From Euglena gracilis (taxonomy: Eukaryota), in the NCBI GenBank assembly GCA_039621445.1, contig CP154954.1:682001-746000 (forward strand): 64,000 nucleotides of DNA. Reading direction: 5' to 3'. Made by a program: the position numbers and the translations under genes. Shown here piece after piece: positions 1,589 to 49,099 of this stretch. The notes under the pieces are model-generated. The model saw only the letters and a list, made by a program, of their open reading frames with translations, made no database searches and had not been told where the DNA came from. How positions within the stretch are numbered: position 1 is the first letter of the stretch; the number at the start of each line of letters is the position of its first letter.

Positions 1589-2441
1589 TCTTTGAAAAAT
1601 AAAAAATTTTCCTTTTGATTTTTTTATTTTTTAAAATTTATACGGTATTTTAATTAAAAATAAAAAAATTGTCCCAGCCACACGTTAAAGTACGGAAAAA
1701 TTTACACTAGGAATTAAGCTAAGTTATTTCTTGTGAATGAAAAGAATTCACAAGATCAGGGATAAAAGCATAACACCTAAACTGTGCGCATGAGCATTTA
1801 CGTATGAAAGTCTAGGAACCTTACCTTAATATTTTTCAATATCACAAAATATAGGGTACTCAGCAGCAATATAAGAAGTATAAAGACATTTTGGTCTCTT
1901 GTAGCATTTTATAAATATTCGTCCAAATCGACAATGAACGACACGCTTCTTACTAGCAAAAAAATTTACAACTAAAAAGCACACACATAACACAAAGAAC
2001 CAAATACAAAGTAGCAATAACTATAATGTACAACAAAATAAAACTCTTATCAGAAGATTACCTAATATTCTCACTATGATTCAACCTATCTTGTTGAATT
2101 TTGTGATTAATCTTTTATATTAGCGAAGAAACATAGTCATTTTCCAAACACTCGAGGATATTATTCATATCGTTTAAAATTTTAAAAGAAAAATATTACG
2201 AAATTCACTGATTTCTATAAACAGATTGTCTTATTTTTTCGGAAGCATCATGTTTTGGCCAAAAAAAATTCAAACTTAAAGGAAACGTGGTTTGACAAAT
2301 TCCTTGGTTTAATTATACCACAATACATTTATCCATGCAATAAAACACTAACGTAACGGCAGTCATAAAAATTACTCGAAAATCGAGTTAATATTAATAA
2401 ATAAACTCACTAAGAGACAATTAAATAAATTAAACTTCCCA

Positions 2442-2558
2442 TAAGGGCACTAAAATCTTTTCCCGGAAAGTAACCTTTCAAGTATCTATTTACCCTTTAT
2501 GTTTAACTTGCAAGTTCGAAATGTTTTAAGTGGATCCATAAAGACAAGAGCACCCTAA
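2442..2558 (-). rRNA. rrf: 5S rRNA (inverted copy)
   Basis: Mirror of 20572-20688. Confidence 0.85.
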
Positions 2559-2632
2559 AATAAAAGTTCATTCAAGAAACTTTTAAATCTTAAAAAAGTG
2601 ACAAGTAAAAATAAATGTTTTGTTTTCATATA

Positions 2633-2948
2633 GGAAAAAATTTTCGGTCGGTTAGTATATCTCGGCTAAAATTGTTACCAATTGTACACCTAATACCTAT
2701 CAAACGGTTCGTCTTACCGTGACCTATGAAGAGTACTTATCTTAAGGTGGGCTTCCTACTTATATGCTTTCAGCAGTTATCCACTCCGCACTTGACTACC
2801 CAGCGTATTCTGTTGGCACAAAAACTGGTACATCAGTGGTGCGTCCTTCCCGGTCCTCTCGTACTAAGGAAAGCGCCTTTCAATACTCTAACGCTCACAC
2901 CGGATATGGACCGAACTGTCTCTCGACGTTCTGAACCCAGCTCACGTA

Positions 2949-2983
<35 letters not shown>

Positions 2984-3000
2984 GTACTACCGCCCCAGGT

Positions 3001-3060
<60 letters not shown>

Positions 3061-3548
3061 CAGCCTGTTATCCCTAGAGTAACTTTTATCTGTTTACGAC
3101 GGCCTTTCCATACAGCACCGTCGGGTCACTAAGACCGACTTTAGTCTCTGTTTGACTTATAAGTCTCACAGTCAAGCTTTCTTATGCCTTTACACTCCAC
3201 AACTAATTTCCGTCTAGCCTGAGAAAACCTTTGTACGCCTCCGTTACTTTTTAGGAGGCTACCGCCCCAGTAAAACTGCCCGCCTGAAACTGTCAATTAT
3301 CATGATTGTACATAAGATTAAGATTAGATTTCTAGCTTTCTCAGAGTGGTATCTCATTTTTCGGCTCCCCGTATCCCAAAAGACAAGATCATAGCCTCCC
3401 ACCTATTCTGCGCAAAAAAAGCCCGAAACCAATTTCAGGATACAGTAAAGCTTCATAGGGTCTTTCTGTCCAAGTGCAAGTAGACCGCATCTTCACAGTC
3501 AATTCTATTTCACCGAGTCTCTTTCTGAGACAGTGTCCAAATCGTTAA

Positions 3549-3601
<53 letters not shown>

Positions 3602-5522
3602 AATTATAGTTATTGCCGCTGTTCACAGGGGCTTCAGTCACTAGCTTTGCTTACGCTAACCAATTTCTTTAACCTTCCTGCACTGAGCAGGCCTCGGCCC
3701 CCATACATGGTTTTTCAACTTCGCGGAGACCTGTGCTTTTGGTAAGCAGTCGCTTGGACCTCTTTTCTGCCACCTCATTAGAGGTACTTCTTCTTCCGAA
3801 GTTACGAAGTCATTTTGCCGAGTTCCTTAGAAAGAGTTATCTCGCGCTCCTTAGTATATTCTACTAACCTACCTGTGTCAGTTTACGGTACAGGCGAGCT
3901 CACTATACATAAACAAAAGTTTTTCTTGGAAACATGACATCAATCACTTTCAATACCGTAGTATTTATACTATTCAGGCCTTAAGACAAAATATTTTTTT
4001 TAATATTTGATACCTCTTGAACCCTTAAACCACAAACCATCACGTGGCCGATCTAGCCTTTTTCGTCACTCCTTACAAGTGAGCATTCGGTACAGGAATA
4101 TTAACCTGTCATCCATCAATTTACGTTGTTAAACCTTATTTTAGGACCTGACTAACCCTTAGAGGACGAACCTGGCTAAGGAAACCTTAGGTTTTCGGAG
4201 CATAGGATTTTCACCAATGTTTTCGTTACTTAAGCCGACATTCTCACTTCTGTTTAATCCAGAACTATTTTCACTATTCCTTCTCTTCAACACAGAACGC
4301 TCTTCTACCGATTTCTCTCACACCTTCGGCAAATTACTTAGTCCCGTTCATTTTCGGCGCACTATCACTTGACCAGTAAGCTATTACGCACTTTTTAAAG
4401 GAATGGCTGCTTCTAAGCCAACCTCCTGGTTGTCTATGTAATAGTACATCCTTTACCACTTAGTAATTATTTAGGGGCCTTAAGTAGTGATCTGGGCTGT
4501 TTCCCTCTTGACAATGAAGCTTATCCCCCACTGTCTCACTGATTAATTGAAATATAACTTAGTATTCAGAGTTTGCCACAACTTGGTACCATTTTCATAG
4601 CCCGCATCGAAACAGTGCTTTACCCCTAATGTTTACCATAATTAAACGCTGCGCCTCAACGCATTTCGAAGAGATCCAGCTAGCTCCAAGTTCGATTGGA
4701 ATTTCTCCCCTAATCACAGTTCATCCCCCAATTTTTCAACATTGGTGGGTTCGGTCCTCCATTCTGTTTTACCAAAACTTCAACCTGACCATGATTAGAT
4801 CACCTGGGTTCGGGTCTATAAGCAATGACATAAACTTTCAAGAAGAAAGTTTTTCGCTTTATTTAAGCTCGATTTCACTATGGCTCCGGAAAAACCTTAA
4901 CCTTGCCATCACCTATAAGTCGCCGGCTCATTCTTCAACAGGCACACAGTCAATCTTTAAATAGATCTCCTACTGCTTGTAAACTTATGCTTTCATATTC
5001 TATTTCACTCACTTCTCAGTGTTCTATTTCAGCTTTCCCTCACGGTACTCGTACACTATCGGTCATTTAGGAGTATTTAGCCTTACGAGATGGTCCTCGC
5101 TGATTCACACAGAATTCCACGTGCTCTATGCTACTCGGGAAAATCAAAAATTACTTTTTAAAAACAAATACGGGATTTAAAACCCTCTTTGATTTTGTTT
5201 TCAACAAATTCTCTATCTTTTTCAGTAATTATAATATACCCACAACACCCATAAAGGTTTAGGCTGATTTCCGTTAGCTCGCCACTAATAAGAAAATCGC
5301 TTTTGCTTTCTTTTCCTTCGGCTACTAAGATGTTTCAGTTCACCAAGTTCTCTACATTATTTGTATACCATTTCATTGTAATGTTAAAGTAATAGGTTGC
5401 CCCATTCGGGAATCTTTAGATTAAAGCTCGTCTTTAGCTCCCTAAAGCATATCGTTAATTTCTACGCCCTTCTTCGACTCTAAATGCCAAGCAATCCCGC
5501 ATAAGCCCTTGTTCATTTGAAC
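2633..5522 (-). rRNA. rrl: 23S rRNA (inverted copy; ends approximate)
   Basis: Conserved LSU motifs on the minus strand; mirror of 17608-20497. Confidence 0.95.
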
Positions 5523-5539
5523 CTACATCAAAACCTTTT

Positions 5540-5612
5540 TGGAGATAAGCGGACTCGAACCGCTGACATCTGCCTTGCAAAGGCAGCGCTCTACCAACTG
5601 AGCTATACCCCC
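5540..5612 (-). tRNA. trnA: tRNA-Ala(UGC)
   Basis: Mirror of 17518-17590. Confidence 0.95.
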
Positions 5613-5621
5613 AAAACCAAG

Positions 5622-5695
5622 AGGGCCATGCTAGACTTGAACTAGCGACCTTACCCTTATCAAGGGTATGCTCTAACCAACTGAGCTAATAGCCC
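5622..5695 (-). tRNA. trnI: tRNA-Ile(GAU)
   Basis: Mirror of 17435-17508. Confidence 0.95.
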
Positions 5696-5781
5696 TCTTG
5701 GAAAAATAAGAGGTTTCCCTACTTATTTTTTTTATTTTTCATTGTTTTCAATCTATACATTTTTTTAGTTAAAAAACTAAA

Positions 5782-5901
5782 GGGAGTTGTTCCAGCCACA
5801 CCTTCCAGTACGGCTACCTTGTTACGACTTCACCCCAGTCACCAGCCAGGCCTTAGGTATTTCCCTCTTTTCAGGCAAGATAATAACTTCGGGCACAGCC
5901 A

Positions 5902-5938
<37 letters not shown>

Positions 5939-6198
5939 AGAACGTATTCACCGCCGTATAGCTGACCGGCGATTACTAGCGATTCCGGCTTCATGTAGGC
6001 GAGTTTCAGCCTACAATCCGAACTTAGGCTAAGTTTTAAGATTAGCTCATTTTCACAAAATTGCAACTTATTGTCTTAACCATTGTAGCACGTGTGTAGC
6101 CCAGGATATAAGGGGCATGATGACTTGACGTCGTCCTCACCTTCCTCTGGTAATAACCAGCAGTATTTCTAAATGACAAGCGTTAATTAAAAAAAAGG

Positions 6199-6250
<52 letters not shown>

Positions 6251-6318
6251 CCACCTGTGTCTAGATACCCGAAGGTACTGCGTTCTTTCAAACTTCCTCC
6301 TAGATCCTGTCAAATCCT

Positions 6319-6399
<81 letters not shown>

Positions 6400-6492
6400 C
6401 TTGTGCAAGCGTACTCCCCAGGCGGGATACTTAACGTGTTAACTACAGCAGTGCACTTTCAGCACCACTTAGTATCCATAGTTTACGGCCAA

Positions 6493-6524
<32 letters not shown>

Positions 6525-7268
6525 TCAGCTTTCGTTTCTCAGCGTCAGTATTGGCCTAGAAAAGTGCCTTCGCCATTGGTGTTCTTTCCAATCTCTACGC
6601 ATTTCACCGCTACACTGGAAATTCCCTTCACCCCTACCATACTCAAGTCTAGCAGTTTTTAATGCCCTTCCAAAGTTAAGCTTTGACTTTTAACATTAAA
6701 CACACTTGACCGCCTACAAACTCTTTACGCCCAATAATTCCGGATAACGCTCGCATCTCCCGTATTACCGCGGCTGCTGGCACGGAATTAGCCGATGCTT
6801 ATTCCTCAAATACCGTCATTTCTTCTTCTTTGAGAAAAGAAGTTTACAACCCAAAGGCCTTCTTCCTTCACGCGGTATTGCTCCGTCAGGCTTGCGCCCA
6901 TTGCGGAAAATTCCTCACTGCTGCCTTCCGTAAAAGTCTGTTCCGTTCTCAATCCCAGTGTGGCTGATCATCCTCTCAAATCAGCTACTGATCGTCGCCT
7001 TGGTAAGCCTTTACCTCACCAACAAGCTAATCAGATGCAAGCTCATGCCTAGGCGAAATTCTCTTTAACTAGCTACTCACATAGATCTAGTAAATTATGA
7101 GGCATTAGCAAACGTTTCCATCTGTTATTCCTCACCCAAGCGCAGATTCTTACATATTACTCACCCGTCCGCCACTAAATTACTATTGCTAGTAATTTCG
7201 TTCAACTTGCATGTGTTAAGCATACCGCCAGCGTTCACCCTGAGCAAGGATCAAACTCGTCATTTCCA
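5782..7268 (-). rRNA. rrs: 16S rRNA (inverted copy of the operon-1 allele with the 9-nt deletion)
   Basis: Full SSU sequence on minus strand; GGGTTGCGGGACTT near 6200 lacks TTGCGCTCG. Confidence 0.95.
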
Positions 7269-7496
7269 AAACATCAAAGTTGGTCAAATCCTTTCACCCT
7301 CTTGGTGACCAAGCAAGGGGCACATTTACTATAATGTGTACACTAAAAGCGCGCTTTGTAGGATTCGAACCTACTACATCAGGTTTTGGAGACCTACGCC
7401 TTACAATTTTAACGAAAAGCAATATTTAGCTATGCTTAACACATGCAAGTTGAACGAAAGGCTTTAATCCACGACCCTACCTTTATCAAAGATATT

Positions 7497-8380
7497 CCAT
7501 AATAAGCAGTTAACGTCGTTTCTAAAGAGTTGAACATGTTTTTTATCTCATTTACATTTTGATATTCAAGGATATTTGAGTTGACAAAAATTATCGCATC
7601 ATAATGATAAGTATTGTTTAATTTCAGTAAATCCTTGGATTTCTTAACTACTAAAGGATAAAAGCCTTTAAATTGCAAATAAGATTCGAAAAAATCGATT
7701 AAATATCTATGTTCACTGCCTAAAATTAAAAATACCTTATTTTTACCCATATTTAGATGGGATTCATAAATATCCAACATCCACCTTAAGTCTTTGGGTA
7801 TTATGTATTCATTAAAATTAATTTTTTATTTCACACCTAATCTCGTACTTAAATATATGTTTCTTAATTGACGTTCAATAGCGTCGCCCTTATATACAAA
7901 TTCTGAAGGTTTTTCTTTTTCAAACAGTAACATAGCATTTTCTATGTCCCCTTTTTTCACTAATTCAATCATCCTTTCTTCCAAAGGAAGATATTGAAAA
8001 TATTTACCATATTTTTTAAGAATTGATTCCGAAGCCATGAAATTTTCTGAAGCATCCACAAAGTTAAATATTTGTTTTATTAAATAGTCGAGCAAATCTT
8101 TCTCATTGTTAACTCTGGCCTATAAATTTTAGAATCAATAGATATATCGAAAAAATTTGCCAATTTAGTATCGACTTCTTTAATAAAATACGAATGCACA
8201 TGAGGGTCCACCTGTTCTATGAAATTCTCGTACTAACGCATAATCAACTAATCCATATTTAACCTCAATAGTGAGAATACTTATCAAAATCCTGATAAGG
8301 TACTTCCTTAATATTTACTCCCTATAAGTTTTTAATAAGTCAATTTTAAATTTATTAATTTAATAAGGTAAAAAGTAGGC
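7497..8380 (-). pseudogene. Geminivirus-like Rep pseudogene (inverted copy)
   Basis: Mirror of 14750-15633 with the same frameshifts and internal stop. Confidence 0.75.
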
Positions 8381-8738
8381 AAACTCACTATACTCCATCA
8401 AAAAAAACGCCAATTATTCTACAAATTGACATTGATAAAAAAGCATATTTAAATAAGTGATAGAATAATCACATTTTCCATAACACTATATTTTAATTAA
8501 TCGATTTTTTTGACACGCTTTAAAAAAAATATTCTACTTCTACTACGTTTAAAATATGCCCATTTTAAATAATAAAAAAAAAAAGCTTTCAACTAAATTT
8601 TTGGTCCAGGTTTTTTTCATCATATTGTGCTTTATAAGAACAATATTTTTTATAAATTTTTTTTACTGTTAAATTGATTTTTGTATTATTTAAATTTTTT
8701 TCTTCTTTTTTTGTCATACTTTTCTCCCTATATAAAAA

Positions 8739-9794
8739 TCAAAAACAAGGCAATGAAGACCGAATCTGCCGTAAATCGACATTTTCACAAGCTCTTTTTC
8801 TAAAGTTTTTAACCATTATATCTAACTGTTCTTCACCATAAATTTCTTTGTTCACTAAAGTATATAATTCAAATTTATCAATTTTTTTATTTTTTGCTTT
8901 TTCTAGAAAAAAAATAAGAAGCATTTCTACAAAAATTCAGTTAAAATCCCAGTTTTTATAATTATCGTTTTTTAAAGAATTATGTTTATAAAACTTAGAA
9001 GCTTGCTTAAATAAAAAAATATTAGAAATATTAGAATTTGAGATACTATTTTCTAATACTGCGACTTCAGATATATACTTCAACAACATAGAACGAAGTT
9101 TTATTGCATCGTTTTTACTCGTTAAAAAAAACAAATTTTTGTACTCTATTATATATTTTTCAATGATGTTTAAAAATTGATCATTAGCTTTCAAAACATT
9201 AAAATGATCGTGTAAAAAATTATTAGAATCATTTATTTCTAATTCCTTTTTCTCTTCTGTTATTTTTTCTTTCACTTTTAAATAATTTTCTGAGGAATTG
9301 GAAATCAATTTAGAAAAAAACGAAGGAAAACAATGATCTTTTCGCGCACGACTTAATAAATTATTTTTAATAACAAAATCAAAACTTAAAGAATTTTTTA
9401 AACCATTTTCAAACCTTGGAACACCTGACCAACAAACTTCAATGTTTTTATTCCCTGTTTTAGAAAAAAAATTATCAAGTGAAGTTTTACTACTCGATCC
9501 CTTTTCTACAATAACAGAATTTTTTTCAAAAGAAAATAATTTTTTAAGACCATGCCTTCGGTAATTTTTATTAAATTCTATATAGACCTCTATAGTCACT
9601 TCACAAAAGTTGTTTAAATTATTTTCAGACAAATCAAAACCATAAATAATAAAAGAAATAGAGTTATAATTAATTAACTCTTTCCACTTTTTGATGAATA
9701 ATAAGTTAAAATCCTCAAAACTACCGAACCCTGTTTTAATAAAAACATGCCAGTTTTTTCCTGGAACCATTGAATACATAATAAAATCTCCCAT
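8739..9794 (-). pseudogene. Inverted copy of the 351-aa ORF, split by TGG>TGA
   Basis: 285-aa and 61-aa ORFs in the same frame match the translation of 13336-14391. Confidence 0.85.
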
Positions 9795-10824
9795 AAATAA
9801 AAAAATAAATCATTTTTTGAAAACCTCAAACTTCCATATCTCCATTATGCAAAAAAAAAAAAAAATGAAAAAAAAAATTTGCAAACCTTCAATTCGAACT
9901 TGCGACCCACTACGATGAAGTAACATAATCACAACGTTACCAATTAAGGATTTTTTTTCTATAATAATAATTTTTTTAAAAAAAAATGAGTGTGAAAAAT
10001 ATAAAAATCTTAATTGAAAAAAAAAATAATAACAAATAACAACTTTTTAAAAAATATAAAAAAATAGATCATTAAAATATATCTTAACTACAATTTCGTT
10101 GTAGGTTAAATTTTAAAAAATCCCGAAGTAAATTGCAAGAACTCTGGAATCAAGGAAAAATATATAAGCAAAAAAAATAACACAGTTTTGCTTAAAGAAA
10201 AAAATAAATTTTCTGAATAAATACATCCTAAAAATCATAAATAAAATGTAAGAAATTGCTTTTTTTGATGAATAATAAGTTAAAATCCTCAAAACTACCG
10301 AATCCTGTCTTAATAAAAACATGCCAATTTTTACCCGGCACTATTGAATGCATAAAAATCTCCCATAAATAAAATCACCGAATTTTAGAACAACCCCCCC
10401 CTATTTGCAAAAAAAAAAAAAAAAATGAAAAAAAAAATTGCAAAACCCAAATTCGAGCTGTCGTACTAATTACGATACTGAAATGTAGTTACCACATAGT
10501 CTACAAAGCATTTTTTTTTTTCTAAAAAAATAATAAAAAAAATTGACCTATTTTTATATAAAAAACCATGTGTTAAGGAAATAATATTACGTATAAAAAA
10601 CGTAGTGACTACTAATAATTATGTATCAAGTTATTTAATACATAAAAAATTTAATATATTGATATTTTTCTTTGAAATCGAAAATAGTATGTATTGACAT
10701 CAGAGGTAATTTTTTTACTCCTCCGTTTTTTGCATTTCTATAATAGTATTATCTGTGTATAAGTTACGCGGTAACTCAACTCCTTTTTCCTCAAGAAATT
10801 TTTCAATAAACTCATAAAATTGCT

Positions 10825-11167
10825 ATTGTGATGAAAAGGATCGTGCAACCTGGTTTCTATTTAAGTATGTGTGTAGCTAATGCATATGAACTTCCTGCAA
10901 TCGTATACCACAATCATCCGGTTAGCAATGATATGTTACAATTTAATCCGACTTTGCAAACAGGATTTGTCTACCCATACGGGCCAGTCAATGTCAGCAC
11001 CGGTCAAATACCTGGGGGGGAATTTAGGCCGAACGTATGTTCATAAAAAAAAAATGTTTACTTCAAAAGATCTAGCAGTTTCATACAACTGTAATGTGGA
11101 GGATGGATTTGTTGAGGTTATAGAAATCCAATTTAATTATTATAAGGATGCATTCCCCCCCGAGTAA
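10825..11167 (+). other. Single-copy, relatively GC-rich coding-like fragment (5'-truncated; possible frameshift at the G7 run)
   Basis: Two overlapping ORFs (10828-11046, 10880-11167) join at CTGGGGGGG into one protein-like sequence ending IQFNYYKDAFPPE*. Confidence 0.45.
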
Positions 11168-11176
11168 TATTCCTTT

Positions 11177-12087
11177 CTATTTTCGATTTCAAAGAAAAAT
11201 ATCAATATATTAAATTTTTTATGTATTAAATAACTTGATACATAATTATTAGTAGTCACTACGTTTTTTATACGTAATATTATTTCTTTAACACATGGTT
11301 TTTTATATAAAAATAGGTCAATTTTTTTATTATTTTTTTAGAAAAAAAAAAATGCTTTGTAGACTATGTGGTAACTACATTTCAGTATCGTAATTAGTAC
11401 GACAGCTCGAATTTGGGTTTTGCAATTTTTTTTTTTCATTTTTTTTTTTTTTTTGCAAATAGGGGGGGTTGTTCTAAAATTCGGTGATTTTATTTATGGG
11501 AGATTTTTATGCATTCAATAGTGCCGGGTAAAAATTGGCATGTTTTTATTAAGACAGGATTCGGTAGTTTTGAGGATTTTAACTTATTATTCATCAAAAA
11601 AAGCAATTTCTTACATTTTATTTATGATTTTTAGGATGTATTTATTCAGAAAATTTATTTTTTTCTTTAAGCAAAACTGTGTTATTTTTTTTGCTTATAT
11701 ATTTTTCCTTGATTCCAGAGTTCTTGCAATTTACTTCGGGATTTTTTAAAATTTAACCTACAACGAAATTGTAGTTAAGATATATTTTAATGATCTATTT
11801 TTTTATATTTTTTAAAAAGTTGTTATTTGTTATTATTTTTTTTTTCAATTAAGATTTTTATATTTTTCACACTCATTTTTTTTAAAAAAAATTATTATTA
11901 TAGAAAAAAAAAATCCTTAATTGGTAACGTTGTGATTATGTTACTTCATCGTAGTGGGTCGCAAGTTCGAATTGAAGGTTTGCAATTTTTTTTTTCATTT
12001 TTTTTTTTTTTTGCATAATGGAGATATGGGAGTTTGAGGTTTTCAAAAAATGATTTATTTTTTTATTTATGGGAGATTTTATTATGT
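11177..12087 (+). repeat. Direct repeat copy 1 (~910 bp; period ~1267 bp)
   Basis: Near-identical to 12444-13354 from CTATTTTCGATTTC to ATGGGAGATTTTATTATGT. Confidence 0.95.
11509..11749 (+). pseudogene. Truncated paralog of the 351-aa ORF N-terminus
   Basis: MHSIVPGKNWHVFIKTGFGSFEDFNLLFIKK...* (11509-11634), plus FFFKQNCVI in a shifted frame matching FSFEKNSVI. Confidence 0.9.
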
Positions 12088-12416
12088 TTTATTTTATGTG
12101 CTCAATGGTTCCCGAAAGGGATTATCAAAAATTAATGGAAGATAAAAAGGAATTAGAAAGAAATGATTATCCTATTTTTAATGAAAAAAAACCTAATGAT
12201 CAACTTTTTAGTTGGGAAGATGTTGTTCTGAGAAACGAAATTGCTGAAAAACGTCGCAGAAAACAGTATGGCGAATCATATGAATATGATTCTAAGCAAA
12301 GAGAAAAGCAATTTTATGAGTTTATTGAAAAATTTCTTGAGGAAAAAGGAGTTGAGTTACCGCGTAACTTATACACAGATAATACTATTATAGAAATGCA
12401 AAAAACGGAGGAGTAA
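12069..12416 (+). CDS. 115-aa ORF, internally deleted paralog of the 351-aa ORF
   Basis: Shares MGDFIM...SMVP, then KLMEDKKELERND...PNDQ matching KITEEKKELEIND...ANDQ. Confidence 0.65.
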   Translation: MGDFIMFYFMCSMVPERDYQKLMEDKKELERNDYPIFNEKKPNDQLFSWEDVVLRNEIAEKRRRKQYGESYEYDSKQREKQFYEFIEKFLEEKGVELPRNLYTDNTIIEMQKTEE

Positions 12417-12443
12417 AAAAATTACCTCTGATGTCAATACATA

Positions 12444-13354
12444 CTATTTTCGATTTCAAAGAAAAATATCAATATATTAAATTTTTTATGTATTAAATAA
12501 CTTGATACATAATTATTAGTAGTCACTACGTTTTTTATACGTAATATTATTTCCTTAACACATGGTTTTTTATATAAAAATAGGTCAATTTTTTTTATTA
12601 TTTTTTTAGAAAAAAAAAAATGCTTTGTAGACTATGTGGTAACTACATTTCAGTATCGTAATTAGTACGACAGCTCGAATTTGGGTTTTGCAATTTTTTT
12701 TTTCATTTTTTTTTTTTTTTTGCAAATAGGGGGGGGTTGTTCTAAAATTCGGTGATTTTATTTATGGGAGATTTTTATGCATTCAATAGTGCCGGGTAAA
12801 AATTGGCATGTTTTTATTAAGACAGGATTCGGTAGTTTTGAGGATTTTAACTTATTATTCATCAAAAAAAGCAATTTCTTACATTTTATTTATGATTTTT
12901 AGGATGTATTTATTCAGAAAATTTATTTTTTTCTTTAAGCAAAACTGTGTTATTTTTTTTGCTTATATATTTTTCCTTGATTCCAGAGTTCTTGCAATTT
13001 ACTTCGGGATTTTTTAAAATTTAACCTACAACGAAATTGTAGTTAAGATATATTTTAATGATCTATTTTTTATATTTTTTAAAAAGTTGTTATTTGTTAT
13101 TATTTTTTTTTTCAATTAAGATTTTTATATTTTTCACACTCATTTTTTTTTAAAAAAATTATTATTATAGAAAAAAAATCCTTAATTGGTAACGTTGTGA
13201 TTATGTTACTTCATCGTAGTGGGTCGCAAGTTCGAATTGAAGGTTTGCAAATTTTTTTTTTCATTTTTTTTTTTTTTTTGCATAATGGAGATATGGAAGT
13301 TTGAGGTTTTCAAAAAATGATTTATTTTTTTATTTATGGGAGATTTTATTATGT
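12444..13354 (+). repeat. Direct repeat copy 2
   Basis: Near-identical to 11177-12087. Confidence 0.95.
12777..13017 (+). pseudogene. Second copy of the truncated N-terminal paralog
   Basis: Matches 11509-11749; a third, inverted copy lies at 10113-10353. Confidence 0.9.
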
Positions 13355-14391
13355 ATTCAATGGTTCCAGGAAAAAACTGGCATGTTTTTATTAAAACAGG
13401 GTTCGGTAGTTTTGAGGATTTTAACTTATTATTCATCAAAAAGTGGAAAGAGTTAATTAATTATAACTCTATTTCTTTTATTATTTATGGTTTTGATTTG
13501 TCTGAAAATAATTTAAACAACTTTTGTGAAGTGACTATAGAGGTCTATATAGAATTTAATAAAAATTACCGAAGGCATGGTCTTAAAAAATTATTTTCTT
13601 TTGAAAAAAATTCTGTTATTGTAGAAAAGGGATCGAGTAGTAAAACTTCACTTGATAATTTTTTTTCTAAAACAGGGAATAAAAACATTGAAGTTTGTTG
13701 GTCAGGTGTTCCAAGGTTTGAAAATGGTTTAAAAAATTCTTTAAGTTTTGATTTTGTTATTAAAAATAATTTATTAAGTCGTGCGCGAAAAGATCATTGT
13801 TTTCCTTCGTTTTTTTCTAAATTGATTTCCAATTCCTCAGAAAATTATTTAAAAGTGAAAGAAAAAATAACAGAAGAGAAAAAGGAATTAGAAATAAATG
13901 ATTCTAATAATTTTTTACACGATCATTTTAATGTTTTGAAAGCTAATGATCAATTTTTAAACATCATTGAAAAATATATAATAGAGTACAAAAATTTGTT
14001 TTTTTTAACGAGTAAAAACGATGCAATAAAACTTCGTTCTATGTTGTTGAAGTATATATCTGAAGTCGCAGTATTAGAAAATAGTATCTCAAATTCTAAT
14101 ATTTCTAATATTTTTTTATTTAAGCAAGCTTCTAAGTTTTATAAACATAATTCTTTAAAAAACGATAATTATAAAAACTGGGATTTTAACTGGATTTTTG
14201 TGGAAATGCTTCTTATTTTTTTTCTAGAAAAAGCAAAAAATAAAAAAATTGATAAATTTGAATTATATACTTTAGTGAACAAAGAAATTTATGGTGAAGA
14301 ACAGTTAGATATAATGGTTAAAAACTTTAGAAAAAGAGCTTGTGAAAATGTCGATTTACGGCAGATTCGGTCTTCATTGCCTTGTTTTTGA
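13336..14391 (+). CDS. 351-aa plastid ORF (probably the E. gracilis ORF350 type) with an N-terminal degenerate HUH/Rep-like domain
   Basis: Long open frame in very AT-rich DNA; spacing of KNWHVF / FIIYG / YIEFNK..LKKLF / VEKGSSS / FFSKTGN follows circo/nanovirus Rep (by-eye comparison). The ORF350 identity is from recall. Confidence 0.8.
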   Translation: MGDFIMYSMVPGKNWHVFIKTGFGSFEDFNLLFIKKWKELINYNSISFIIYGFDLSENNLNNFCEVTIEVYIEFNKNYRRHGLKKLFSFEKNSVIVEKGSSSKTSLDNFFSKTGNKNIEVCWSGVPRFENGLKNSLSFDFVIKNNLLSRARKDHCFPSFFSKLISNSSENYLKVKEKITEEKKELEINDSNNFLHDHFNVLKANDQFLNIIEKYIIEYKNLFFLTSKNDAIKLRSMLLKYISEVAVLENSISNSNISNIFLFKQASKFYKHNSLKNDNYKNWDFNWIFVEMLLIFFLEKAKNKKIDKFELYTLVNKEIYGEEQLDIMVKNFRKRACENVDLRQIRSSLPCF

Positions 14392-14749
14392 TTTTTATAT
14401 AGGGAGAAAAGTATGACAAAAAAAGAAGAAAAAAATTTAAATAATACAAAAATCAATTTAACAGTAAAAAAAATTTATAAAAAATATTGTTCTTATAAAG
14501 CACAATATGATGAAAAAAACCTGGACCAAAAATTTAGTTGAAAGCTTTTTTTTTTTATCATTGAAAATGGGCATATTTTAAACGTAGTAGAAGTAGAATA
14601 TTTTTCTTAAAGCGTGTCAAAAAAATCGATTAATTAAAATATAGTGTCATGGAAAATGTGATTATTCTATCACTTATTTAAATATGCTTTTTTATCAATG
14701 TCAATTTGTAGAATAATTGGCGTTTTTTTTGATGGAGTATAGTGAGTTT

Positions 14750-15633
14750 GCCTACTTTTTACCTTATTAAATTAATAAATTTAAAATTGACTTATTAAAA
14801 ACTTATAGGGAGTAAATATTAAGGAAGTACCTTATCAGGATTTTGATAAGTATTCTCACTATTGAGGTTAAATATGGATTAGTTGATTATGCGTTAGTAC
14901 GAGAATTTCATAGAACAGGTGGACCCTCATGTGCATTCGTATTTTATTAAAGAAGTCGATACTAAATTGGCAAATTTTTTCGATATATCTATTGATTCTA
15001 AAATTTATAGGCCAGAGTTAACAATGAGAAAGATTTGCTCGACTATTTAATAAAACAAATATTTAACTTTGTGGATGCTTCAGAAAATTTCATGGCTTCG
15101 GAATCAATTCTTAAAAAATATGGTAAATATTTTCAATATCTTCCTTTGGAAGAAAGGATGATTGAATTAGTGAAAAAAGGGGACATAGAAAATGCTATGT
15201 TACTGTTTGAAAAAGAAAAACCTTCAGAATTTGTATATAAGGGCGACGCTATTGAACGTCAATTAAGAAACATATATTTAAGTACGAGATTAGGTGTGAA
15301 ATAAAAAATTAATTTTAATGAATACATAATACCCAAAGACTTAAGGTGGATGTTGGATATTTATGAATCCCATCTAAATATGGGTAAAAATAAGGTATTT
15401 TTAATTTTAGGCAGTGAACATAGATATTTAATCGATTTTTTCGAATCTTATTTGCAATTTAAAGGCTTTTATCCTTTAGTAGTTAAGAAATCCAAGGATT
15501 TACTGAAATTAAACAATACTTATCATTATGATGCGATAATTTTTGTCAACTCAAATATCCTTGAATATCAAAATGTAAATGAGATAAAAAACATGTTCAA
15601 CTCTTTAGAAACGACGTTAACTGCTTATTATGG
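14750..15633 (+). pseudogene. Geminivirus-like rolling-circle Rep pseudogene (probably the ORF406-type locus)
   Basis: VREFHRTG/DPHVH (14897-14936), NFFDI..IYRP (14973-15014), DYLIK (15041-15055), AMLLFEKEKPSEFV..LRNIY, and decayed helicase; at least 2 frameshifts and a stop at 15302. Confidence 0.78.
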
Positions 15634-15780
15634 AATATCTTTGATAAAGGTAGGGTCGTGGATTAAAGCCTTTCGTTCAACTTGCATGTGTTAAGCATAG
15701 CTAAATATTGCTTTTCGTTAAAATTGTAAGGCGTAGGTCTCCAAAACCTGATGTAGTAGGTTCGAATCCTACAAAGCGCG
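15633..15780 (+). pseudogene. Mosaic leader: partial pseudo-trnI, inverted 16S fragment, pseudo-trnW
   Basis: TTTGATAAAGGTAGGGTCG resembles the trnI anticodon arm; CGTAGGTCTCCAAAACCTGATGTAGTAGGTTCGAATCCTACA is identical to the 3' part of trnW, with a decayed D arm. Confidence 0.8.
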
Positions 15781-15861
15781 CTTTTAGTGTACACATTATA
15801 GTAAATGTGCCCCTTGCTTGGTCACCAAGAGGGTGAAAGGATTTGACCAACTTTGATGTTT

Positions 15862-16605
15862 TGGAAATGACGAGTTTGATCCTTGCTCAGGGTGAACGCT
15901 GGCGGTATGCTTAACACATGCAAGTTGAACGAAATTACTAGCAATAGTAATTTAGTGGCGGACGGGTGAGTAATATGTAAGAATCTGCGCTTGGGTGAGG
16001 AATAACAGATGGAAACGTTTGCTAATGCCTCATAATTTACTAGATCTATGTGAGTAGCTAGTTAAAGAGAATTTCGCCTAGGCATGAGCTTGCATCTGAT
16101 TAGCTTGTTGGTGAGGTAAAGGCTTACCAAGGCGACGATCAGTAGCTGATTTGAGAGGATGATCAGCCACACTGGGATTGAGAACGGAACAGACTTTTAC
16201 GGAAGGCAGCAGTGAGGAATTTTCCGCAATGGGCGCAAGCCTGACGGAGCAATACCGCGTGAAGGAAGAAGGCCTTTGGGTTGTAAACTTCTTTTCTCAA
16301 AGAAGAAGAAATGACGGTATTTGAGGAATAAGCATCGGCTAATTCCGTGCCAGCAGCCGCGGTAATACGGGAGATGCGAGCGTTATCCGGAATTATTGGG
16401 CGTAAAGAGTTTGTAGGCGGTCAAGTGTGTTTAATGTTAAAAGTCAAAGCTTAACTTTGGAAGGGCATTAAAAACTGCTAGACTTGAGTATGGTAGGGGT
16501 GAAGGGAATTTCCAGTGTAGCGGTGAAATGCGTAGAGATTGGAAAGAACACCAATGGCGAAGGCACTTTTCTAGGCCAATACTGACGCTGAGAAACGAAA
16601 GCTGA

Positions 16606-16637
<32 letters not shown>

Positions 16638-16730
16638 TTGGCCGTAAACTATGGATACTAAGTGGTGCTGAAAGTGCACTGCTGTAGTTAACACGTTAAG
16701 TATCCCGCCTGGGGAGTACGCTTGCACAAG

Positions 16731-16811
<81 letters not shown>

Positions 16812-16879
16812 AGGATTTGACAGGATCTAGGAGGAAGTTTGAAAGAACGCAGTACCTTCGGGTATCTAGACACAGGTGG

Positions 16880-16931
<52 letters not shown>

Positions 16932-17191
16932 CCTTTTTTTTAATTAACGCTTGTCATTTAGAAATACTGCTGGTTATTACCAGAGGAAGGTGAGGACGAC
17001 GTCAAGTCATCATGCCCCTTATATCCTGGGCTACACACGTGCTACAATGGTTAAGACAATAAGTTGCAATTTTGTGAAAATGAGCTAATCTTAAAACTTA
17101 GCCTAAGTTCGGATTGTAGGCTGAAACTCGCCTACATGAAGCCGGAATCGCTAGTAATCGCCGGTCAGCTATACGGCGGTGAATACGTTCT

Positions 17192-17228
<37 letters not shown>

Positions 17229-17348
17229 TGGCTGTGCCCGAAGTTATTATCTTGCCTGAAAAGAGGGAAATACCTAAGGCCTGGCTGGTGACTGGGGTGA
17301 AGTCGTAACAAGGTAGCCGTACTGGAAGGTGTGGCTGGAACAACTCCC
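15862..17348 (+). rRNA. rrs: 16S rRNA, operon 1 (9-nt deletion allele)
   Basis: AGTTTGATCC, GTGCCAGCAGCCGCGGTAA and AAGTCGTAACAAGG motifs. Confidence 0.97.
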
Positions 17349-17434
17349 TTTAGTTTTTTAACTAAAAAAATGTATAGATTGAAAACAATGAAAAATAAAA
17401 AAAATAAGTAGGGAAACCTCTTATTTTTCCAAGA

Positions 17435-17508
17435 GGGCTATTAGCTCAGTTGGTTAGAGCATACCCTTGATAAGGGTAAGGTCGCTAGTTCAAGTCTAGC
17501 ATGGCCCT
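17435..17508 (+). tRNA. trnI: tRNA-Ile(GAU)
   Basis: Cloverleaf; anticodon loop TTGATAA. Confidence 0.96.
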
Positions 17509-17517
17509 CTTGGTTTT

Positions 17518-17590
17518 GGGGGTATAGCTCAGTTGGTAGAGCGCTGCCTTTGCAAGGCAGATGTCAGCGGTTCGAGTCCGCTTATCTCCA
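17518..17590 (+). tRNA. trnA: tRNA-Ala(UGC)
   Basis: Cloverleaf; anticodon loop TTTGCAA. Confidence 0.96.
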
Positions 17591-17607
17591 AAAAGGTTTT
17601 GATGTAG

Positions 17608-19528
17608 GTTCAAATGAACAAGGGCTTATGCGGGATTGCTTGGCATTTAGAGTCGAAGAAGGGCGTAGAAATTAACGATATGCTTTAGGGAGCTAAAGAC
17701 GAGCTTTAATCTAAAGATTCCCGAATGGGGCAACCTATTACTTTAACATTACAATGAAATGGTATACAAATAATGTAGAGAACTTGGTGAACTGAAACAT
17801 CTTAGTAGCCGAAGGAAAAGAAAGCAAAAGCGATTTTCTTATTAGTGGCGAGCTAACGGAAATCAGCCTAAACCTTTATGGGTGTTGTGGGTATATTATA
17901 ATTACTGAAAAAGATAGAGAATTTGTTGAAAACAAAATCAAAGAGGGTTTTAAATCCCGTATTTGTTTTTAAAAAGTAATTTTTGATTTTCCCGAGTAGC
18001 ATAGAGCACGTGGAATTCTGTGTGAATCAGCGAGGACCATCTCGTAAGGCTAAATACTCCTAAATGACCGATAGTGTACGAGTACCGTGAGGGAAAGCTG
18101 AAATAGAACACTGAGAAGTGAGTGAAATAGAATATGAAAGCATAAGTTTACAAGCAGTAGGAGATCTATTTAAAGATTGACTGTGTGCCTGTTGAAGAAT
18201 GAGCCGGCGACTTATAGGTGATGGCAAGGTTAAGGTTTTTCCGGAGCCATAGTGAAATCGAGCTTAAATAAAGCGAAAAACTTTCTTCTTGAAAGTTTAT
18301 GTCATTGCTTATAGACCCGAACCCAGGTGATCTAATCATGGTCAGGTTGAAGTTTTGGTAAAACAGAATGGAGGACCGAACCCACCAATGTTGAAAAATT
18401 GGGGGATGAACTGTGATTAGGGGAGAAATTCCAATCGAACTTGGAGCTAGCTGGATCTCTTCGAAATGCGTTGAGGCGCAGCGTTTAATTATGGTAAACA
18501 TTAGGGGTAAAGCACTGTTTCGATGCGGGCTATGAAAATGGTACCAAGTTGTGGCAAACTCTGAATACTAAGTTATATTTCAATTAATCAGTGAGACAGT
18601 GGGGGATAAGCTTCATTGTCAAGAGGGAAACAGCCCAGATCACTACTTAAGGCCCCTAAATAATTACTAAGTGGTAAAGGATGTACTATTACATAGACAA
18701 CCAGGAGGTTGGCTTAGAAGCAGCCATTCCTTTAAAAAGTGCGTAATAGCTTACTGGTCAAGTGATAGTGCGCCGAAAATGAACGGGACTAAGTAATTTG
18801 CCGAAGGTGTGAGAGAAATCGGTAGAAGAGCGTTCTGTGTTGAAGAGAAGGAATAGTGAAAATAGTTCTGGATTAAACAGAAGTGAGAATGTCGGCTTAA
18901 GTAACGAAAACATTGGTGAAAATCCTATGCTCCGAAAACCTAAGGTTTCCTTAGCCAGGTTCGTCCTCTAAGGGTTAGTCAGGTCCTAAAATAAGGTTTA
19001 ACAACGTAAATTGATGGATGACAGGTTAATATTCCTGTACCGAATGCTCACTTGTAAGGAGTGACGAAAAAGGCTAGATCGGCCACGTGATGGTTTGTGG
19101 TTTAAGGGTTCAAGAGGTATCAAATATTAAAAAAAATATTTTGTCTTAAGGCCTGAATAGTATAAATACTACGGTATTGAAAGTGATTGATGTCATGTTT
19201 CCAAGAAAAACTTTTGTTTATGTATAGTGAGCTCGCCTGTACCGTAAACTGACACAGGTAGGTTAGTAGAATATACTAAGGAGCGCGAGATAACTCTTTC
19301 TAAGGAACTCGGCAAAATGACTTCGTAACTTCGGAAGAAGAAGTACCTCTAATGAGGTGGCAGAAAAGAGGTCCAAGCGACTGCTTACCAAAAGCACAGG
19401 TCTCCGCGAAGTTGAAAAACCATGTATGGGGGCCGAGGCCTGCTCAGTGCAGGAAGGTTAAAGAAATTGGTTAGCGTAAGCAAAGCTAGTGACTGAAGCC
19501 CCTGTGAACAGCGGCAATAACTATAATT

Positions 19529-19581
<53 letters not shown>

Positions 19582-20069
19582 TTAACGATTTGGACACTGT
19601 CTCAGAAAGAGACTCGGTGAAATAGAATTGACTGTGAAGATGCGGTCTACTTGCACTTGGACAGAAAGACCCTATGAAGCTTTACTGTATCCTGAAATTG
19701 GTTTCGGGCTTTTTTTGCGCAGAATAGGTGGGAGGCTATGATCTTGTCTTTTGGGATACGGGGAGCCGAAAAATGAGATACCACTCTGAGAAAGCTAGAA
19801 ATCTAATCTTAATCTTATGTACAATCATGATAATTGACAGTTTCAGGCGGGCAGTTTTACTGGGGCGGTAGCCTCCTAAAAAGTAACGGAGGCGTACAAA
19901 GGTTTTCTCAGGCTAGACGGAAATTAGTTGTGGAGTGTAAAGGCATAAGAAAGCTTGACTGTGAGACTTATAAGTCAAACAGAGACTAAAGTCGGTCTTA
20001 GTGACCCGACGGTGCTGTATGGAAAGGCCGTCGTAAACAGATAAAAGTTACTCTAGGGATAACAGGCTG

Positions 20070-20129
<60 letters not shown>

Positions 20130-20146
20130 ACCTGGGGCGGTAGTAC

Positions 20147-20181
<35 letters not shown>

Positions 20182-20497
20182 TACGTGAGCTGGGTTCAGA
20201 ACGTCGAGAGACAGTTCGGTCCATATCCGGTGTGAGCGTTAGAGTATTGAAAGGCGCTTTCCTTAGTACGAGAGGACCGGGAAGGACGCACCACTGATGT
20301 ACCAGTTTTTGTGCCAACAGAATACGCTGGGTAGTCAAGTGCGGAGTGGATAACTGCTGAAAGCATATAAGTAGGAAGCCCACCTTAAGATAAGTACTCT
20401 TCATAGGTCACGGTAAGACGAACCGTTTGATAGGTATTAGGTGTACAATTGGTAACAATTTTAGCCGAGATATACTAACCGACCGAAAATTTTTTCC
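17608..20497 (+). rRNA. rrl: 23S rRNA, operon 1 (ends approximate)
   Basis: GAACTGAAACATCTTAGTA, peptidyl-transferase loop and sarcin-ricin loop AGTACGAGAGGACC. Confidence 0.96.
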
Positions 20498-20571
20498 TAT
20501 ATGAAAACAAAACATTTATTTTTACTTGTCACTTTTTTAAGATTTAAAAGTTTCTTGAATGAACTTTTATT

Positions 20572-20688
20572 TTAGGGTGCTCTTGTCTTTATGGATCCAC
20601 TTAAAACATTTCGAACTTGCAAGTTAAACATAAAGGGTAAATAGATACTTGAAAGGTTACTTTCCGGGAAAAGATTTTAGTGCCCTTA
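20572..20688 (+). rRNA. rrf: 5S rRNA, operon 1
   Basis: ~117 nt with complementary ends (AGGGTGCT/AGTGCCCT), downstream of 23S. Confidence 0.85.
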
Positions 20689-21540
20689 TGGGAAGTTTAA
20701 TTTATTTAATTGTCTCTTAGTGAGTTTATTTATTAATATTAACTCGATTTTCGAGTAATTTTTATGACTGCCGTTACGTTAGTGTTTTATTGCATGGATA
20801 AATGTATTGTGGTATAATTAAACCAAGGAATTTGTCAAACCACGTTTCCTTTAAGTTTGAATTTTTTTTGGCCAAAACATGATGCTTCCGAAAAAATAAG
20901 ACAATCTGTTTATAGAAATCAGTGAATTTCGTAATATTTTTCTTTTAAAATTTTAAACGATATGAATAATATCCTCGAGTGTTTGGAAAATGACTATGTT
21001 TCTTCGCTAATATAAAAGATTAATCACAAAATTCAACAAGATAGGTTGAATCATAGTGAGAATATTAGGTAATCTTCTGATAAGAGTTTTATTTTGTTGT
21101 ACATTATAGTTATTGCTACTTTGTATTTGGTTCTTTGTGTTATGTGTGTGCTTTTTAGTTGTAAATTTTTTGCTAGTAAGAAGCGTGTCGTTCATTGTCG
21201 ATTTGGACGAATATTTATAAAATGCTACAAGAGACCAAAATGTCTTTATACTTCTTATATTGCTGCTGAGTACCCTATATTTTGTGATATTGAAAAATAT
21301 TAAGGTAAGGTTCCTAGACTTTCATACGTAAATGCTCATGCGCACAGTTTAGGTGTTATGCTTTTATCCCTGATCTTGTGAATTCTTTTCATTCACAAGA
21401 AATAACTTAGCTTAATTCCTAGTGTAAATTTTTCCGTACTTTAACGTGTGGCTGGGACAATTTTTTTATTTTTAATTAAAATACCGTATAAATTTTAAAA
21501 AATAAAAAAATCAAAAGGAAAATTTTTTATTTTTCAAAGA

Positions 21541-37400: not shown

Positions 37401-38669
37401 ATAACTTTTATTTGTTTTTAAAATTATTAATTTTTTTTATAACTTTTTCAAAAATTTATATTTAGCTTTTTTTCATATTTCATTATTAATGAAAAATTAA
37501 ATTCAATTAAAATTTTTTGATTTAAATGAAAAATGTTTATTTTATTTAATAAAGCTAAATCTATTATTAGTTTAGATGTTTAGTTTGAAAACGAATATTA
37601 ATTTGTTAAGTTTTAAGAAAATATTAGTATGTTTATTCCTAATGCAAGTTTAAAAACTATTAAAAACTTGAAAAATAATGGTATTATTAAAATAGGTTCA
37701 GAGATTAAAGCACAGGATGTTTTAATTGGAAGAATTAAAGTTAAGTTAAAAAATACGCCAAAAAATAAAATGTTAATAGCATTTTTTGGCAATAAGGTAC
37801 GAAAAGACGTTTCTTTACGTTCTCCTCGCTCTTTGGTAGGTATTGTTACAAGTGTTGAGATTTTATGTAAAAAGTCGAATTGTTCTGTTCTTATTCATGT
37901 TGCCGAAAAACGCAGAATACAAATAGGTGATAAAATTGCAGGACGGCATGGTAATAAAGGTATAATTTCGAAAATTGTTCCGTCTATAGATATGCCTTTT
38001 CTTCCTGATGGTACACCTGTTGATATGATTTTAAATCCTCTAGGCATACCATCTAGAATGAATGTTGGTCAAGTCTTTGAAAGTTTGTTAAACTTGTCTT
38101 CTTTATTTTTGAAAGAAAGGTATAAAATTCAACCTTTTGATGAAGTCCAAACAAGTATGAATTCAAAATCTTTTGTGTATAAAAAATTAAATGAAGCGCG
38201 TAAAAGAACTAAAAAAGATTGGCTTTTTAATCCAAATTATCCAGGAAAAGCCTTTTTATATGATGGTAGAAATTGTAGGCCTTTTGATCACCCTGTAGCT
38301 TTTGGTTATGCGTATATTTTAAAATTAATACATATGGTTAAAGACAAAATTCATGCGAGAGTTACCGGCCCTTATTCTTCAGTAACTCAACAACCTTTAC
38401 GTGGAAAATCGAAAAATGGTGGACAAAGGTTTGGGGAAATGGAGGTTTGGGCTATAGAAGGATTTGGTGCTGCATATTTGTTGCAGGAGTTATTAACTAT
38501 TAAATCTGATGATGTATTAAATAGATCAGAAGCGTTATTTAGTTTAATAAATGGTACTTATTTTTCTAAGCCAAATATTCCCGAAGCTTTCAAGTTATTT
38601 ATTTTAGAAATGCAATCTTTATGTATTGATATTAAAATTTTTACAAATAATTATAAAAAATTCGATTAG
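34421..38669 (+). CDS. rpoB: RNA polymerase beta subunit, intron-split
   Basis: GRVCPIETSEG, HNDANRVLMGSNMQRQ, GDKIAGRHGNKG and GGQRFGEME motifs; several ~100-nt U-rich introns and a 309-nt GTGCG intron (37308-37616). Confidence 0.95.
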
Positions 38670-47000: not shown

Positions 47001-47029
47001 TTTTTATCCCTATATAATTAGAAGACCCC

Positions 47030-48917: not shown

Positions 48918-48923
48918 ATAAAT

Positions 48924-49095: not shown

Positions 49096-49099
49096 AGTT

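Follow-up and report, generated by a model that had tools for sequence, protein, structure and literature searches.

Positions 682,001 to 746,000 of contig CP154954.1 of Euglena gracilis (the window, 64,000 nucleotides [nt], whose own numbering is used throughout) contain, just upstream of a ribosomal DNA (rDNA) unit, a broken gene at 14870-15619 on the plus strand, together with an identical twin on the minus strand. This relic is best explained as a pseudogene of a Rep protein (HUH endonuclease-superfamily 3 [SF3] helicase) of the Gemini_AL1 family, broadly defined, that would have been captured by the plastid, duplicated, and left to decay; we put the probability of this reading at about 0.9. 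An original prediction, made from the letters of the window alone, had described the same stretch as a near full-length, geminivirus-type Rep fossil directly upstream of the plastid rDNA, and that interpretation is supported here, with amendments. Judged by sequence, the relative of the relic in E. gracilis is the open reading frame (ORF) ORF281 (EugrCp051, P0002) or, in var. bacillaris, a 333-amino acid (aa) form of it (ORF333, P0086).

The relic changes frame twice. LVDYALVREFHRTG is read in the frame of 14561, DPHVHSYFIKEVDTKLANFFDISIDSKIYRPE one base on, and RVNNEKDLLDYLIKQ...ELVKKGDIENAMLLFEKEKPSEFVYKGDAIERQLRNIY again in the first frame; 3' of an in-frame TAA at 15302-15304 (+), where the open relative has Ala, come NFNEYIIPKDLRW...KVFLILGSEHRYLIDFFESY...YDAIIFVN...TLTAYYG. 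All of the strings quoted in the original prediction are present at the places and in the frames assigned to them, and the extra base that it had put near 14921, the second shift that it had put near 15010, and the stop were all recovered. The first break is a +1 change somewhere inside 14912-14921 (+); the second is a +2 (= -1) change at 15009-15014 (+), at the equivalent of which P0086 continues in a single frame. The stretch is present in 20 listed runs from 13 studies, with no RNA data set listed among those that contain it; run X1 gave no contig here, and contigs from two runs of other studies (X10 and X13) span it: X10 record 4 (14859-15296), X10 record 6 (15267-15677), and X13 record 10 (14804-15321). 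Over both frameshifts and the stop there are 0 differences and 0 gaps, with each frameshift crossed unchanged by X10 and X13 contigs and the TAA by X10 record 6. Because these contigs reproduce them, the breaks are not errors of this assembly, and two frameshifts plus one stop mark the gene as a pseudogene. Run X18 consists of 1006 short contigs, some of which carry a few differences. Its contig set includes a join, at depth 168.7 (summed depths ~70,000-490,000), from 15593 to 14438 with 25 other letters between; a second table of joints for these contigs lists none. The join may be chimeric, or it may reflect a tandem or circular form confined to the relic region.

The 3' two-thirds of the relic provide its link to known proteins. 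When 15014-15691, with the TAA read as X, was used to search a set of 5.8 billion proteins, the sole match was ORF281 (E 4.2e-90, 79% identity, region 15092-15619), which is annotated as an 'uncharacterized 33.1 kDa protein'. The last stretch homologous to ORF281, ending ...NSLETTL, lies at 15554-15619 (+) by alignment and tblastn; the C-terminal ~100 residues of ORF281 have no counterpart in the relic, and the rDNA repeat begins at 15698. No Pfam family scored above threshold with either the relic pieces or ORF281. However, when the relic and ORF281 were combined into a two-sequence profile and 1.84 billion representatives were searched with it by HMMER, 65 proteins passed the threshold of E <= 1e-3. 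Of these, 15 also passed E <= 1e-10 and 3 passed E <= 1e-30, and ORF281 plus the window's own ORF114 and ORF89 account for three of the 65; the best match of the 3' part to real Reps had an E value of 1.8e-24 among the 1.84 billion proteins. ORF281 was then aligned with 61 of the matches, the two window ORFs and one 2793-aa protein being omitted. PF00799 Gemini_AL1 (Geminivirus Rep catalytic domain) is found in 48 of the 61 scanned matches, PF23343 in 10, and Gemini_AL1_M in one. Furthermore, in eight of the ten best matches PF00799 is over the Pfam cut-off (34-80 bits) and ends just before the part matched by ORF281. Since the catalytic domain ends just there, ORF281 corresponds to the part of Rep that follows the nuclease, that is, the helical linker plus the helicase. 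A search with the ORF281 alignment for related loci in metagenome and viral contigs found none, and a search of the ESM Atlas with ORF281 gave nothing useful (best score 0.77).

The 5' third could be examined with a hidden Markov model (HMM) of 381 positions, built from the 47 matches of at least 300 aa. These sequences had been found via the 3' part only, so the upstream sequence of the window had no influence on the N-terminal positions of the HMM. The joined 5' part, X-marked at the step, scores 39.8 bits on this Rep HMM, and the whole relic scores 145 bits. When the 2669 six-frame pieces of the window were searched by hmmsearch with the filters off, the four best distinct matches proved to be adjacent and collinear, all on the plus strand: 14816-14947 (profile 47-66, E 0.41), 14898-15047 (66-104, E 0.014), 15011-15301 (105-194, E 7.8e-24), and 15305-15691 (201-303, E 4.9e-7). 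Every one of the four has a twin on the opposite strand. As the reader who made the original prediction had a free choice of frames, a frameshift-tolerant local alignment of DNA to profile, in which a frame change costs 8 bits, was used together with controls. Positions 14560-15013 against profile 1-104 give 29.0 bits in this test, compared with a mean of 12.5 (standard deviation [sd] 1.6, maximum 19.5) for 600 dinucleotide shuffles and a mean of 13.3 (sd 2.2, maximum 20.1) for 530 real-DNA controls taken from both strands of the rest of the window. Aligned in full, 14870-15544 matches profile 50-274 at 137.6 bits, along a path that includes the +1 change, the +2 change, and the stop at 15302. 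The first detectable piece of the HUH domain is KYGLVDYALVREFH at 14870-14911 (+), the strand leading into motif II (profile 50-63 in this alignment and within profile 47-66 in the hmmsearch piece 14816-14947). The description 'near full-length' has to be withdrawn: the alignment covers only 50-274 of the 381 profile positions, and the relic lacks the final third of the helicase.

It might be supposed that the resemblance to Rep arose by chance from the choice among three frames in A+T-rich DNA. Single pieces are indeed weak, and the reader was free to pick frames: P0001, a 50-residue joined read of 14861-15013 with X at the four-letter step, has PF23343 as its best Pfam match at E 0.055, and its best PDB sequence match, a Rep chain aligned on the HUH motif, is likewise weak at E 0.61. 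A tblastn search of P0001 against plasmids found nothing, and no longer proteins containing the N-terminal piece were found. Chance is nevertheless refuted by the score of 29.0 bits in a test where none of 1130 controls, given equal frame freedom, exceeded 20.1, by the E value of 1.8e-24 between the 3' part and Reps, and by the four collinear pieces that rank first of 2669, so that an accidental match would be extraordinarily improbable.

With the established names for the Rep motifs, the relic can be divided into a nuclease part whose HUH and Tyr/Lys residues remain and a helicase part whose Walker motifs have gone. Motif II, the HUH motif (His-Val-His, HVH), is kept in sequence at 14928-14936 (+), where it aligns to 'lHvy' of the profile and to the two His residues that are invariant there. 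The GRS-like segment FFDISIDSKIY is kept at 14976-15009 (+; profile 86-100, in one frame in P0086), as is motif III, YLIK, with the catalytic Tyr and Lys, at 15044-15055 (+; 'YilK' in the profile, YLTK in P0086). The best conserved part is a central helical segment, LEERMIELVKKGDIENAMLLFEKEKPSEF, at 15146-15232 (+), which lies within the piece 15011-15301, is helical in a model of P0086, and is the equivalent of the linker between nuclease and helicase. Beyond it, the Walker A position at 15410-15433 (+) now reads GSEHRYLI, with no GK[ST] (profile 'GkpgtGKt', open relative GGELRYLI), and the Walker B position at 15533-15553 (+) now reads AIIFVNS, with both Asp residues replaced (profile 'aIllDDv', open relative AIIFSDS). 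The part that would hold the motif C Asn and the arginine finger is missing from the relic; in P0086, 'isNk' has become MSSK and 'RR' has become ME. Thus, the proposals that the HUH motif and the catalytic Tyr/Lys had been kept and that Walker A GKT and Walker B DD had been lost were both correct. The relic is predicted to have neither nicking nor helicase activity.

The retained HUH and Tyr residues could be taken to mean that the gene is still functional, its frame changes and stop being bypassed by small introns, editing, or recoding. Introns would be in keeping with the setting, as euglenid plastid genes are intron-rich, a feature seen in the rpoB and rpoC pieces of the window and described in the available part of PMC6207741. 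However, the profile alignment is continuous over both breaks with only 1-2 spare bases, too few to accommodate an intron. Euglenid introns are not known to be shorter than some tens of bases. Furthermore, neither a start codon nor motif I is found upstream, both Walker motifs have been lost, and the gene lacks its 3' third. A working gene is consequently very improbable, and decay to a pseudogene is the preferred explanation.

The open relative supplies further evidence. P0086, which falls in the same 90% cluster as ORF281, carries extra N-terminal residues, KKIDTKAANFFDIYVDSKTYSAYVQTVNNEKDLLDYLTKQ, in a single frame; thus the window pieces flanking the second break were once contiguous. Its GRS-like segment and motif III lie in one open frame, and its score over profile 79-373 is 154.7 bits; the first 60 residues, taken by themselves, give 33.7 bits. 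No PF08283 (Gemini_AL1_M) is found in it. A model of P0086 built on 47 Rep relatives has a predicted local distance difference test (pLDDT) value of 88.8 and a predicted template modeling (pTM) score of 0.69. Foldseek of this model against the PDB gave 33 matches at E <= 1e-3, with template modeling (TM) scores near 0.3, the best being the papillomavirus E1 helicase (3.7e-5), followed by Rep40 of adeno-associated virus 2 (AAV2), DnaC, and RuvB. Against BFVD there were 174 matches at E <= 1e-3, with Reps of circular Rep-encoding single-stranded (CRESS) DNA viruses first, from 8.5e-9, and with crucivirus, geminivirus, and genomovirus Reps also among them. The fold of the Rep, checked in this way through its intact relative, agrees with the original prediction, and the modeled structure of P0086 is that of an SF3/AAA+ helicase. 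An earlier two-sequence fold of ORF281 (pLDDT 44.6) was set aside.

The sequences closest to the relic come from very small DNAs. The ten closest clusters are on contigs of 1.4-2.9 kb, and the closest retrievable relative, P0008 (L037), is on one of 1751 nt whose 108-nt terminal direct repeat implies a putative circle of ~1637 nt; apart from the Rep it has no ORF longer than 78 aa, and upstream of the gene there is a 27-nt inverted repeat (54-80 vs 89-115). Such small-circle Reps (P0005-P0012, P0015-P0017, and L037) rank first among the sequence matches, with E values from 1.8e-24 to 1e-10 and identities of 26-30%, and have the same order of segments as the relic: HUH domain, helical linker, and helicase. 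Unlike the relic they are intact, since motif I, HUH, Tyr, Walker A (GxGKT), and Walker B (DD) are all present in their consensus, and they are found on free small circles, whereas the relic lies inside an organelle genome. The catalytic domain PF00799 that these relatives carry is also present in geminivirus-type Reps (L008-L011 from IMG/VR; 159-203 bits for Gemini_AL1, 119-144 bits for Gemini_AL1_M) and in phytoplasma plasmid Reps (L001-L004; E 3.7e-20 for PF00799 in L001). Their motifs come in the same order, with an FFDI/GRS-like segment and YxxK at the same spacing. In contrast, Gemini_AL1_M, which is present in the geminivirus-type Reps, occurs in just 1 of 62 scanned rows and not in P0086. 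The phytoplasma plasmid Rep homologues L005, L006, and L007 lack both HUH His residues in our alignment; catalytically degenerate Reps may persist on plasmids too.

These relationships were also examined in a quick maximum-likelihood tree of 57 rows, made up of 47 matches, P0086, the X-marked relic, four phytoplasma Reps, and four geminivirus-type Reps. Left out were ORF281 (redundant), 14 matches shorter than 300 aa, L005-L007, and 25 IMG/VR loci without an ORF of at least 300 aa. The relic and P0086 form a pair (support 100) inside a clade of 14-15 unnamed rows with a support of 89-94, and the geminivirus-type and phytoplasma rows lie beyond a branch of support 98, apart from the 49 other rows. 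It follows from this position that the relic is a Gemini_AL1-family Rep broadly rather than a geminivirus Rep narrowly, and membership of that broad family is what its sequence indicates. The label 'geminivirus-type' is therefore sound for the family as a whole but not for the group formed by geminiviruses and phytoplasma plasmids, outside which the relic falls. A Geminiviridae Rep in the narrow sense was considered and rejected, as P0086 has no Gemini_AL1_M and the Euglena pair is separated from L008-L011 by the branch of support 98.

The window that holds the relic has the gene content of a photosynthetic-euglenid plastid, with a psaA/psaB exon, pieces of rpoB, rpoC1, and rpoC2, and rps4. 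Its rpoB exon (37629-38666) is identical to E. gracilis rpoB at 346 of 346 residues, and its rps4 has a letter-for-letter match in public protein sets. ORF281/ORF333 is 79-84% identical to the relic over the shared part and has the same degenerate Walker A and Walker B, but it is open for 281 or 333 codons and retains the C-terminal 100 residues; conversely, the annotated ORF is without the HUH motif, whereas the relic has HUH but also three breaks and a truncation. Given that the window and both forms of ORF281 are all E. gracilis, and yet the sequences differ, there are most likely two copies in one plastome, ORF281/ORF333 being a paralogue of the relic. The other possibility, that the two are orthologues occupying the same locus in diverged strains, draws on the fact that both copies have not been seen on one molecule, the window having only the relic and its inverted twin, and on the available part of PMC3308993, in which the region is reported near a stretch of variable size. 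Such divergence is hard to reconcile with an rpoB exon that is 100% identical when 31 of the 188 aligned sites, and the 3' ends in their entirety, are different between the Rep copies. Furthermore, the strain Z and var. bacillaris forms fall in one 90% cluster, and it is the version of the window that recurs throughout the listed runs and studies. Orthology is thus improbable, and paralogy is preferred.

Taken together, these results have led to a model for the origin of the relic. We infer that the gene entered the E. gracilis plastid genome on a small circular replicon, which could be viral, satellite, or plasmid in nature, with a Rep-only mini-circle as the candidate donor. Because Walker A and Walker B have been lost alike in both copies, the helicase motifs would have decayed first, and the decayed gene would then have been duplicated within the plastome. 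ORF281/ORF333, still open although catalytically dead, would descend from one copy. The relic, descended from the other, would later have gained two frameshifts and a stop, would have lost its start and motif I, and would have had its 3' end cut off where the rDNA repeat begins; today it would be without function and would simply record the invasion. The G+C content of the relic, 27.9%, matches that of plastid genes (28-30%) and not that of L037 (40%), which fits an old insertion.

Several observations weigh against this account of the relic or parts of it. Pfam Gemini_AL1 lists no row at E <= 10 for the pieces, P0001, ORF281, or P0086, and Gemini_AL1_M likewise has no listed match on the Euglena sequences; since Pfam's own models miss these sequences, the link has to be made through a profile of intermediate relatives. 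The original prediction had looked to both Pfam models to recognize the repaired frame, and it is the HMM of the relatives that does so, at 145 bits, but not the Pfam models. Pairwise BLASTP against a phytoplasma plasmid Rep aligns only 'FFDI'. Motif I is undetectable: the best block in 14560-14880 has 6.6 bits, with 0.55 such blocks expected by chance, and it sits elsewhere than FLPY and FTLLN, the candidates first suggested, whose letters are present although no motif I block beats chance. Because 47 of the 48 rows in the alignment behind the P0086 model are Reps, the fold partly restates the sequence result and is supporting, not independent, proof. The tree was obtained by a quick search, and the clade of the Euglena pair, with its support of 89-94, is not starred. 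The case for paralogy is built on the identical rpoB exon and the rps4 match. Finally, a relative-rate count over the 31 differing sites, in which outgroup rows favored each copy at 9 sites with 13 ties, gave no indication of slower amino-acid change in the open copy.

The location directly upstream of plastid rDNA, as had been claimed, is also borne out. The adjoining rDNA repeat unit (repeat family D5) starts at 15698-15997 (+), after the truncated relic, at a distance of 80-830 nt, and its 16S gene is at 15864-17350 (+) by Rfam. A weak tRNA-like match in the leader of the unit beside the relic, at 15708-15780 and again at 7350-7422 (37.4 bits vs a gathering score of 29), looks like a pseudo-tRNA. 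Rfam places four rRNA operons in the window: a tandem array of three on the plus strand and a single minus-strand operon. The relic lies entirely within a 7922-nt inverted repeat, which the original prediction had not noticed, with arms at 1959-9880 and 13250-21171. The arms have 10 mismatches, all of them outside the relic; consequently, the twin at about 7511-8260 (-) is identical. Two giant palindromes are present in the window. The first (1224-21905) has arms of ~7.9-8.6 kb that flank 9881-13249, and the second (33802-63377) has arms of ~13 kb around 46725-50446 (rps4 plus tRNAs), with blocks that are 79-100%, and mostly 97-100%, identical.

E. gracilis plastid DNA is described in the available parts of PMC3308993 and PMC6207741 as having tandem rRNA operons and no inverted repeat. 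This description, together with the two giant palindromes, raises the possibility that the sequence of the relic is real but that the inverted repeat and the contact with rDNA are an assembly artefact, or that the window is a nuclear copy of plastid DNA. However, short-read contigs (X10 records 6 and 8 and X13 record 12) continue from the relic into the rDNA leader, to 15677-15700, and the summed contig depth in X18 is very high, although depth is not a copy number. We regard such an artefact or nuclear copy as unlikely, while giving it more weight than any of the other alternatives. The palindromes are either an assembly artefact or else an unreported isomer, a question that has no bearing on the Rep origin of the relic.

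A full-text search of the literature, with supplements and subscription journals falling outside its scope and an older mention being possible, turned up no account of a Rep-like gene in the plastid of any euglenid. Geminivirus-related replicase genes of red-algal plasmids, with homologues in the nuclear and organellar genomes of other eukaryotes, are described in the available part of PMC4814812, in which the fixation of foreign DNA in plastid genomes is held to be rare and from which the word 'Euglena' is absent. The replicase sequences of red-algal and other organelles and the endogenous geminivirus-like elements of plant nuclei are, like the relic, decaying genes of foreign replicons; those cases, as far as the available parts of PMC4814812 and PMC7758297 go, are in red-algal, stramenopile, or plant genomes, whereas the relic is in a euglenid plastid. 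The phenomenon is known, and this instance appears to be new. It adds the euglenid plastid to the places in which Rep genes of small circular replicons have become fixed, and it identifies an E. gracilis plastid ORF to which the source records still attach the name 'uncharacterized' or 'hypothetical'. In addition, the relic is tied to a clade of very small, Rep-only circles, which makes euglenids or their plastids one possible host for such circles.

The position of the relic suggests a possible link to plastid replication, as it lies between the rDNA and the repeat-rich center of the palindrome, and the origin has been reported near a 16S gene. Specifically, the available part of PMC3308993 places the E. 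gracilis plastid origin in a tandem-repeat region ~6 kb upstream of the extra 16S gene. The repeat-rich center (9881-13249, units of ~1267 nt) is 1.6-5 kb upstream of the relic, and this nearness to the reported origin is no more than suggestive. Over 9851-13357, the palindrome center shows direct repeats of ~1267 nt, nested inverted repeats, and long A/T runs. The geminivirus nonanucleotide TAATATTAC occurs five times in the window, where 2.0 copies are expected and 7 of 100 shuffles reach five. None of these copies is near the relic; the nonanucleotide occurs once per repeat copy in the palindrome center, not in a hairpin, and the one copy that was folded gave no hairpin (z 0.01). No hairpin resembling an origin was detected. 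A more ambitious hypothesis holds that the relic, ORF281/ORF333, and perhaps a neighboring frame, ORF351, are remnants of a rolling-circle replicon captured beside the plastid origin and variable region, and that the dead but open paralogue has been kept as an origin-binding or DNA-organizing protein, or that the element seeded either the origin or the amplification of the rDNA units. We consider this hypothesis improbable.

ORF351 itself is an open frame of 351 codons at 13336-14391 (+), just upstream of the relic and on the same strand; its twin in the other repeat arm, at 8937-9794 (-), is cut to 285 codons. Searches of Pfam, of the PDB by sequence, and of viral contigs gave no sequence relatives, and plasmids gave only weak matches to Bacillus (E of at least 0.5). 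The ten best matches in the ESM Atlas are Gemini_AL1/Viral_Rep clusters of Cressdnaviricota, with a top score of 0.92 and 198 of 256 features shared, but the recognition value is below the mark set by the tool. An hhalign comparison with the Rep alignment gave a probability of 0.2%. Scores were 3.0 bits with a circovirus-type profile (equalled by 10 of 2000 shuffles) and 5.6 bits with a Gemini-type profile (equalled by 11 of 2000), the two matches falling in different regions of the protein. ORF351 may be a second, far more decayed Rep. Another frame of the window, ORF115 (12069-12416), begins with MGDFIM..., as does ORF351.

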